A stretch of DNA of 40,702 nt from positions 1 through 40,702 of IMG/VR virus record IMGVR_UViG_2923350032_000005; one strand, given 5' to 3'. This document shows, one piece after another, positions 25,333-25,740 of the stretch. The notes under the pieces are model-generated. The model worked only from the letters and a program-made list of their open reading frames with translations. It did not search any database and was not told where the DNA came from. Origin of the DNA: a virus. Taxonomy: Duplodnaviria > Heunggongvirae > Uroviricota > Caudoviricetes. The first letter of the stretch is position 1; each line of letters begins with the position of its first letter. The position numbers were made by a program, and so were the translations under genes.

Positions 25333-25590
25333 TCAAACACTACCCTGTTGATGATTTCTCAGAAGCGAACTTGACTCCCAGGGGAAACTCAACTTTCCGT
25401 TAAAACCACCAGCAGACATTCGTTCAATTTCCACAGAAATATCACTGAGCCGTTCTTCAAGCTCTGCTTTTTCTTTTACCAGACGGTTATAGCGGCTTAG
25501 ATGAAGCTTTTGCTGCTCCAGCCAGTCTTCAAGCTGTTCAACAGTCATACCAGGGTTAAAAAAATATGGCTGCTGCTTTTCGCCCTGCAT
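25333..25590 (-). CDS. Hypothetical protein: first gene after the putative tR' terminator (Q-to-lysis moron slot)
   Basis: ORF track gives 25333..25659, but that start has no RBS and precedes the terminator. The ATG at 25590 (MQGEKQQPYFFNPGMTVEQLEDWLEQQ...) has GGAGG six nt upstream. Predicted coiled-coil; no family recognised. Confidence 0.45.
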   Translation of the reverse strand: MQGEKQQPYFFNPGMTVEQLEDWLEQQKLHLSRYNRLVKEKAELEERLSDISVEIERMSAGGFNGKLSFPWESSSLLRNHQQGSV

Positions 25591-25603
25591 TATTGACCTC
25601 CAG

Positions 25604-25630
25604 AAAAGCAAAAACCCCGCCGAAGCGAGG
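25604..25630 (-). terminator. Intrinsic terminator (tR'-like) downstream of the putative late promoter
   Basis: On the minus strand: CCUCGC-UUCG-GCGGGG followed by UUUUUGCUUUU (UUCG tetraloop, one G-U pair); seen directly in the sequence. Confidence 0.6.
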
Positions 25631-25680
25631 TTTGTTATGATTTCGTTAACGGCAGACATATAAAGCCCATCGTTAGGAGA

Positions 25681-25709
25681 ATCCTAACCAGATTTTTTGA
25701 AAAATGCAA
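25681..25709 (-). promoter_or_regulatory. Putative Q-dependent late promoter (pR'-like) just downstream of Q
   Basis: Minus strand TTGCAT (-35, 25709-25704), 17-nt spacer, TAGGAT (-10, 25686-25681); a small hairpin GTTAGGA-TTC-TCCTAAC overlaps the start region. Pattern match only. Confidence 0.4.
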
Positions 25710-25740
25710 GTATCATGTCGCCATCTTCGTCGAAAATCAT

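Follow-up and report, generated by a model that had tools for sequence, protein, structure and literature searches.

A lambda-type late-gene switch in a lambdoid prophage and its first late gene, a probable orphan of a convergent two-gene accessory cassette

Introduction

Q cassettes are defined by a common layout, in which the Q gene is followed by the late promoter pR', a pause element, a terminator and the late genes (PMC9388147). In lambda, a −10-like sequence constitutes the sigma-dependent pause element at which Q is loaded (PMC9388147). Short RNAs made from pR' are known as well, namely the 6S RNA of lambda, those of phages 21, phi80, 82 and P22, and StxS, an Hfq-binding regulator from Shiga toxin (Stx) phages (PMC7547250). 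Here we describe a region of this layout in a tailed-phage sequence of 40,702 nucleotides (nt), IMG/VR record IMGVR_UViG_2923350032_000005 (hereafter the window, which means this whole stretch of DNA), together with the first gene behind its terminator, tR', which encodes a protein of 85 amino acids (aa) that we refer to as p85.

With lambda, the locus shares an antiterminator gene of the family PF03589, a promoter just after the Q stop codon, the identical sequence AACGATGGG six nt downstream of the −10 element, and the succession of a short terminated leader, lysis genes and structural genes. It differs in its Q protein, which at 250 aa is only 35% identical to that of lambda (tblastn), in weaker promoter hexamers, in a leader of about 68 nt with one terminator, and in the presence of a protein gene between tR' and the holin gene. 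The lambda pR' leader is 194 nt long. As in the late region of Stx phages, a promoterless cargo gene, presumably dependent on Q read-through, is situated between tR' and the holin gene; the cargo in the window is, however, a predicted cytoplasmic coiled coil of 85 aa without signal peptide or toxin similarity and, unlike for StxS, nothing indicates Hfq binding or targets for the leader.

In the sb49-sb50 region of Salmonella phage ST64B, the gene of the homologue Sb50 likewise comes directly behind a Q-like gene and a terminator whose 3' arm is the one found in the window. The window is similar to the DT104 variant of ST64B, for which a published SB49 primer matches the Q gene of the window. 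ST64B differs in keeping an intact convergent gene of the ECs1072 family and a second terminator before the holin gene, both of which were lost in the window. Both protein families, with the same tail-to-tail overlap of their genes, are also present in the gp36 region of Shigella phage SfIV; there, however, the pair is located between a cI-like repressor gene and the early-left genes (where lambda has rexAB), and its small gene is co-oriented with the repressor and not with the late operon. Lambda rexAB and P22 sieB/esc are small accessory modules that are dispensable for growth and occupy variable slots beside regulatory genes. Their likeness to the cassette discussed below is a functional analogy only, with no sequence or fold similarity; their genes are neither convergent nor overlapping, and an exclusion phenotype is not known for the p85/ECs1072 cassette.

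Taken as a whole, the explanation that we favour, and that we consider somewhat better than evenly probable, is that the control region represents the lambda-type late-gene switch of a lambdoid, ST64B-like prophage, and that p85 belongs, as one of two genes, to a mobile accessory cassette and not to the lysis machinery. According to the same explanation, the partner gene lost its promoter and ~82 codons at its 5' end through a deletion in this lineage, which left p85 as an orphan in the cargo slot.

Results and discussion

Late promoter and pause element

The late-switch features and the genes of this part of the window are all encoded on the minus strand. The elements of the switch are the following.

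25741..26493, minus strand: Q antiterminator gene (250 aa), Q-lambda family, with PF03589 and phrog_127 matches
25681..25709, minus strand: putative late promoter pR' (−35 TTGCAT at 25709-25704, 17-nt spacer, −10 TAGGAT at 25686-25681)
25666..25674, minus strand: predicted start A25674 and pause element AACGAT followed by GGG, a 9-mer whose spacing from the −10 element is identical to that in lambda
25604..25674, minus strand: predicted short leader transcript of ~68 nt, from the promoter and terminator positions
25604..25633, minus strand: intrinsic terminator tR' (stem 25633-25612, U-tract 25614-25604)

The Q gene product matched PF03589 with an E value of 2e-54 and phrog_127 with an E value of 1e-108, and its identity to the Q proteins of mEp460 and Stx2c phages is 97-99%. 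A preliminary description of this DNA, made from the letters alone, had proposed a sigma70-like promoter, TTGCAT-17-TAGGAT, downstream of the Q gene. It is present as described, and transcription from it would begin, judging by position, ~65 nt past the Q stop codon. Its hexamers count against a late promoter, since they match the consensus at just 7 of 12 positions and were not listed by a consensus promoter scan of the region; taken alone they are therefore no better than chance. What makes the site credible is the alignment of the entire stretch with lambda pR', in which AACGATGGG is invariant and follows the −10 element at six nt, as it does in lambda. Column for column, TTGACT-17-TAAATT-TGACTC-AACGATGGG of lambda corresponds to TTGCAT-17-TAGGAT-TCTCCT-AACGATGGG of the window, and when mEp460 and L064, a locus with a 64%-identical Q, were added, 40 columns were invariant over ~90, among them all of AACGATGGG and a CATGAT stretch ahead of the −35 element.

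By lambda geometry, transcription is predicted to start at A25674. The spacer of pR' resembles the lambda spacer in the alignment and is, by analogy, where the Q binding element would lie. It should be added that the 9-mer AACGATGGG has two copies in the window against 0.28 expected, the second exact copy being located at 22444-22452 on the plus strand, near HNH and small-terminase genes, in no comparable context.

A different reading of these data would be that the site is no late promoter, that the late genes are reached from the early right operon and that the hairpin merely terminates the Q transcript. The imperfect hexamers and their absence from the consensus scan speak for it, but the homology with lambda pR' extends over ~90 nt and includes an equally spaced pause element, and the promoter block moves together with the window-type Q gene in phages having unrelated downstream sequence. 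We regard this reading as highly improbable, the promoter being supported by its homology to lambda pR'. A 7-bp (base pair) inverted repeat, GTTAGGA/TCCTAAC at 25672-25688, covers both the −10 element and the predicted start and scores terminator-like on the plus strand; its candidacy as a regulatory site was rejected, as it is not conserved in mEp460 and probably arose by chance.

Leader and terminator

The terminator of the preliminary description, CCUCGC-UUCG-GCGGGG followed by a U-run, was recovered by scan, by folding and by conservation. Its core (25630-25615) is flanked by A's and U's and forms, according to the scan, a 9-bp stem with 5 G-C pairs and a loop of 4, the best terminator-like site in the region; the hairpin was found in both the minimum free energy and the centroid folds. 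Folded as a whole, the leader (−20.3 kcal/mol, z −1.33) does no better than shuffled sequences, a further point that does not favour our explanation, and because this value is not significant we claim the tR' hairpin only and no leader structure. No RNA family was detected in the region with Rfam. In nine loci with 85-aa homologues the 3' arm, the U-tract and the ribosome-binding site (RBS) were invariant, while the 5' arm and the loop varied with the stem pairing kept. In mEp460 and the Stx2c phage, identity of 97-99% in the Q gene and the promoter persists up to 25648; past this position they carry another GC-rich hairpin with a U-tract at equal distance.

The PF03589 Q protein, the alignment with lambda pR' including its pause element, and the terminator together bear out the earlier interpretation of a pR'-tR' unit. 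From the analogy with lambda we infer start, pausing, termination and Q dependence at pR'. RNA polymerase would start constitutively at the lambda-type pR' after the Q gene and pause at the −10-like AACGAT, which is among the first bases to be transcribed. In the absence of Q, as in a lysogen, it would stop ~68 nt downstream at tR', so that a constitutively made RNA of ~68 nt is predicted; after induction, Q would be loaded at the pause and polymerase would read through tR' into the late operon.

The first late gene, p85

Behind the terminator, the following features precede and include the first lysis gene.

25597..25601, minus strand: RBS GGAGG, six nt before ATG 25590, read from the sequence and conserved with the gene elsewhere
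25333..25590, minus strand: p85 gene, first late gene (85 aa), PHROG 3501 / ST64B Sb50 family
24867..25253, minus strand: first lysis gene, holin PF16931, with Pfam and PHROG matches

An 85-aa gene with a good RBS ahead of the holin gene had been postulated, along with the suspicion that the longer version in the list of open reading frames (ORFs) was mis-started, and both points are corroborated here. The N-terminus MQxEKQQPYFFNPGM, which corresponds to a start at 25590, is common to 39 homologues, and the records of Escherichia phage SKA5 and Salmonella phage 118970_sal3 both annotate the 258-nt version of the gene. In the 108-aa version of the ORF list, the upstream extension reads through the terminator and differs between loci; on these comparisons the 108-aa version is mis-started and ATG 25590 is the true start. 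The same mis-start is seen in the ST64B reference record (NC_004313, L093), where sb50 begins upstream of the terminator and is given 119 aa and not 85. From the U-tract of tR' there are 2 nt to the RBS and 12 nt to the ATG. Because the RBS directly follows the U-tract, there is no room for an own promoter of p85, and its expression would therefore be gated by Q read-through, as for a Q-dependent late gene.

The protein had been said to match nothing recognisable. This holds for function, as we found no credible match to a protein of known function, a toxin or a lysis accessory, but not for the family, which is known: p85 matched phrog_3501 (unknown function) with an E value of 1.2e-54 over residues 1-84 of 85 and is 75% identical to Sb50 of ST64B. 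A search of 5.8 billion clusters returned 59 relatives, all of them named hypothetical, from E. coli, Salmonella, Citrobacter, Enterobacter, Kluyvera, Klebsiella and Pectobacterium, and an exhaustive profile search of 1.84 billion representatives gave 32 clusters at 50% identity and nothing beyond the family. By these searches the family is small and confined to prophages of Enterobacterales. Its conserved motifs are PYFFNPGM..EQLEDWL at the N-terminus and SFPWxPSPLL at the C-terminus. The glutamine of QQPYFF, which could have suggested a beta-clamp binding motif, is not conserved in the family (the conserved core being PYFFNPG(M/L)), and this reading was discarded.

In the AlphaFold model, p85 consists of one helix at residues 17-60 with disordered ends (predicted local distance difference test, pLDDT, ~88 in the helix and 77 overall), and the sequence search of the PDB matched solely designed coiled coils, in agreement with the coiled-coil character noted previously. 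By eye, neither a signal peptide nor a hydrophobic membrane-spanning segment was seen in the sequence, and p85 is thus predicted to be a cytoplasmic single-helix coiled coil. Searches of Pfam, NCBIfam, PADLOC and PDB yielded only sub-threshold unrelated families or matches of coiled-coil composition, and Foldseek of the model against PDB returned nothing, an outcome to be expected when the model is a single helix. No credible similarity to toxins emerged from the Pfam, NCBIfam, PDB and fold searches. The homology and structure search recommended earlier for the 85-aa protein likewise identified no known lysis accessory such as an antiholin.

Against diverged relatives, the ratio of non-synonymous to synonymous substitution (dN/dS) of p85 was 0.11-0.36, and in the 62 codons that lie outside the overlap with a second gene, described below, the corresponding ratio for polymorphism (pN/pS) was 0.32. 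Judged by these values, p85 is a real gene under purifying selection among relatives.

A convergent partner of the ECs1072 family

In relatives, the gap from the p85 homologue to the next late gene measures 480-580 nt and shows 70-85% identity, distant loci included. The opposite strand of this gap codes for a protein of ~144 aa, the last ~23 codons of which overlap the last ~23 codons of the p85 homologue in a tail-to-tail manner. This partner belongs to phrog_5286 and to NCBIfam NF033230, 'ECs1072 family phage-associated protein', intact copies matching NF033230 with E values of 1e-42 to 1e-52. A full-length convergent partner was found in 32 of the 34 homologous loci outside the clade of the window; the other two were disrupted, one being truncated and one interrupted by an insertion sequence. 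The latter locus (L068 4344-5267, with a transposase ORF of 307 aa) represents another, independent inactivation. In ST64B the partner (144 aa, 36438..36869) is unannotated in NC_004313. Like p85, the partner gene is under purifying selection. Its promoter was not found by the consensus scan of ST64B.

The pairing recurs in a second context. SfIV and 409-423 of 5426 complete E. coli genomes carry, between a cI-like repressor gene and the early-left genes, an ECs1072-family gene together with a convergent, overlapping ORF of 68 aa, which matched the profile of the p85 family with an hhalign probability of 94.5% and an E value of 8e-8, the identities being only ~20-30%. Distant members with the same tail-to-tail overlap follow an S24 repressor (L097) and a PF06530 Q gene (L098). 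In SfIV (L094), a further gene, gp35 (114 aa, 2085-2429), overlaps the start of the ECs1072-family gene gp36. The p85/ECs1072 pairing appears in no functional description that we found in the literature and is a new result of this work.

In ST64B-type loci, a second intrinsic terminator is situated between the cassette and the holin gene (L061 2708-2727, plus strand). The same locus has a terminator-like hairpin on the minus strand (2144-2124), inside the conserved stretch KEKAALEERL and 45 nt past the partner stop codon, which could end the partner transcript.

These arrangements bring up the question whether p85 encodes a functional protein at all, or whether its conservation derives from the overlapping partner gene, the terminator of the partner, or antisense RNA pairing. 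Synonymous change is indeed depressed in the ~23 overlapping codons (synonymous polymorphism, pS, 0.33 versus 0.67 outside), as expected for dual coding, and in ST64B the opposite-strand terminator-like hairpin falls in the stretch of the helix that is conserved best. However, pN/pS is 0.32 in the 62 non-overlapping codons, where synonymous change is near saturation, the best conserved motif is the N-terminal one, which is farthest from the partner, a strong RBS is conserved at the correct spacing, and the gene is called independently by PGAP and by phage annotators. We find a non-coding p85 scarcely credible.

Loss of the partner in the window clade

In the window, the cassette is incomplete.

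25281..25397, plus strand: partner remnant (NF033230), equal to residues ~83-143, with an internal deletion (tblastn, DNA alignment)
25254..25332, minus strand: deletion scar between p85 and the holin gene (25332-25304 cassette leftover, 25303-25254 native holin leader)

An intact convergent NF033230 gene with an overlapping 3' end is not found in the window, which holds the remnant only, inside a 44-codon ORF (25269..25403, plus strand) that overlaps the 3' end of p85. The ST64B partner, used in tblastn against loci of the window clade, aligned over residues 83-143 with 42-46% identity and an E value of ~4e-8. This clade comprises SKA5, 118970_sal3 and 49 viral contigs, and is represented in ~100 complete E. 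coli genomes; the Q-to-lysis segment of the window (24600-26500) is ~98% identical to both named phages. The gap between p85 and the holin gene amounts to 79 nt in the window and 145 nt in 118970_sal3, against the 480-580 nt of relatives. Beyond the p85 stop codon, 29 nt of the cassette are kept in the window and 95 nt in 118970_sal3, and the next 50 nt are holin leader; the last 46 nt before the holin gene are common to holin-8 prophages without a p85 gene. The second terminator of ST64B-type loci was lost as well, and none follows p85 in the window. The deleted convergent partner, the overlap of the p85 3' end with its remnant and the signs of decay in this lineage had gone unremarked in the preliminary description.

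Within the window clade, p85 shows 14 non-synonymous versus 6 synonymous segregating sites, and the changes include the nearly invariant G14 and the conserved W71; pN/pS is ~0.7 by a rough count over ~196 non-synonymous and 59 synonymous sites. Four loci of the clade carry a frameshift in a run of seven T's (codons 10-11), and three of these have a nonsense change in addition, W71* or Q82*. This pattern fits a loss of p85 function after the loss of the partner, unlike the constraint seen between intact cassettes.

Several points weigh against the view of p85 as a decaying half of a cassette. The copy of p85 in the window is itself intact, is identical to a common allele and may still work alone. 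The signal of relaxed selection comprises 20 segregating sites, several of which are linked in one allele, and the homopolymer frameshifts of the orphan clade could be sequencing errors. Moreover, neither p85 nor the partner has an informative homologue or fold match, and adjacency and co-inheritance do not prove an interaction between the products of the two families.

Genomic contexts and the variable cargo slot

In 83 fetched loci, ~150 nt separate the p85 homologue from the Q-like gene before it, or the homologue comes behind a tRNA gene that follows Q. The upstream antiterminators belong to PF03589 (window, L058, L064, L068, L073), PF06530 (L007, L008, L072) and PF06323 (L006), and at least four unrelated lysis cassettes are found downstream, namely holin-8 with GH19, a P22 gp13-like holin, a GH108-type endolysin set, and a small holin with a signal-anchor-release (SAR)-type endolysin.

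These contexts bear on the possibility that p85 is a lysis-timing accessory, that is, a cytoplasmic antiholin or holin cofactor comparable to T4 RIII and made before the holin accumulates. Such a role would suit a small, soluble and helical protein encoded 79 nt upstream of the holin gene in the same transcription unit. It is unlikely, though, because the family follows all three Q families and precedes varied lysis genes. In most relatives, furthermore, the convergent partner and the second terminator intervene before the holin gene, in some also STnc100 copies or a 2-kb insert; the SfIV-type homologue is located beside the repressor gene, far from any lysis gene; and many prophages with the same holin genes have no p85 gene. 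Altogether we hold an antiholin or holin cofactor to be improbable.

The backbone of DUF968 gene, Q gene and pR'-tR' holds different cargo in different prophages. In other E. coli prophages it is a hypothetical gene of 213 aa, 198 aa or 80 aa, and in mEp460 a lipoprotein gene, a 75-aa ORF and a DNA methylase gene. In the Stx2c phage LC727876, Q is 99% identical to that of the window and is followed by a homologous promoter and pause element and by a terminator in the equivalent position; between this control unit and the holin gene, the phage carries the three gene types of mEp460 and then stx2cA and stx2cB. This confirms that p85 occupies the slot in which Stx phages carry stx, as had been suggested. 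In L090, homology to the window stops right after GGAGG. The preliminary description also spoke of a toxin/moron slot. The p85 gene is variably present in a conserved backbone, but it has no promoter of its own and no terminator after it in the window, and it is therefore not a typical moron.

It is conceivable that p85 is autonomous late cargo, which acts on the host or on competitors, for instance by countering a defence system that senses late products, and that the partner is a mere neighbouring moron. Its variable slot, shared with stx and other cargo in related phages, its narrow distribution in prophages of Enterobacterales and the persistence of intact p85 without the partner in ~100 complete E. 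coli genomes are all compatible with this. The pairing, however, persists as far as homology can be detected and is seen at two unrelated places in the genome, which mere neighbourhood hardly explains; frameshift and nonsense alleles occur in the orphan clade, where non-synonymous polymorphism is also in excess; and the defence and anti-defence models of PADLOC were unmatched, PADLOC-DB 2.0 giving no match for p85 or three partner proteins at E values up to 0.1. We consider autonomous cargo unlikely and prefer to see p85 as a member of the pair.

A number of other elements were noticed around the slot. STnc100 (RF02076) copies are present between the cassette and the holin gene in L007 (4761-5456, three in tandem), L072 (4740-4935) and L078 (5843-6034), and none in the window. 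Genes for tRNA lie between Q and the p85 homologue in L072 (Thr-tgt, 3855-3930), L077 (Thr-tgt, 3864-3939) and L006 (Ser-tga, 3021-3106), and recall the tRNA genes after Q in Stx phages. In L064 (2674-3882), a gene for a 402-aa nSTAND1/AAA NTPase is placed between Q and the p85 homologue and may be a defence gene in the cargo slot.

Possible function of the cassette and its significance

In our best explanation, p85 would be a small subunit or an antagonist of the ECs1072-family protein, encoded in a cassette that moves between cargo slots, and a leftover in the window. The coiled coil would serve as a stalk that presents the conserved peptide motifs of the two termini, and p85 would have little or no role once the partner was lost. 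We infer an interaction between the two proteins because of their strict co-inheritance, the fixed overlap of the genes and the decay of the orphan; that p85 acts by binding or counteracting the ECs1072-family product is put forward tentatively, as a possibility well short of an even chance. The literature on Sb50 and ECs1072 provided no functional data.

More speculatively, and in our estimate with a distinctly small likelihood, the two proteins could form an unrecognised two-component prophage system, e.g. an exclusion or abortive-infection effector with its dedicated protein antagonist. Transcription of the host operon, either late or repressor, would then silence the effector gene by collision or antisense RNA, and the same transcript would supply the antagonist. 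If this were true, the window would hold a disarmed relic of such a system.

For the window as such, the findings are largely ordinary: the control unit is another case of the well-known Q-lambda late cassette, and p85 falls into a recognised, uncharacterised family. The practical value of the unit is that it marks where the late operon begins, sets right the wrong start of an ORF and leads to the prediction of a short, constitutively made RNA of the sort from which the regulatory RNA StxS arose in Stx phages. The fixed convergent and overlapping arrangement of PHROG 3501 and NF033230 in two classic lambdoid accessory slots, one form of the cassette being present in ~8% of complete E. coli genomes, offers a testable lead to an accessory function. 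With one half lost and the other apparently decaying, the window can be seen as a natural experiment that supports interdependence; the main lead is provided by the intact cassettes elsewhere.

Flanking genes and prophage end

The PF16931 holin gene is followed by a second holin-family gene (PF05449), a GH19 endolysin gene and an Rz-like spanin gene (Pfam, PHROG). The GC content is 41-45% over 25250-25875 versus 47-59% on both flanks. The window is an integrated prophage with the integrase gene adjoining a tRNA-Thr gene: an integrase-sized ORF (38081..39244, plus strand) abuts tRNA-Thr(cgt) (39259..39334, minus strand), and this part of the window (38081-39334) is probably the prophage end and attachment site.

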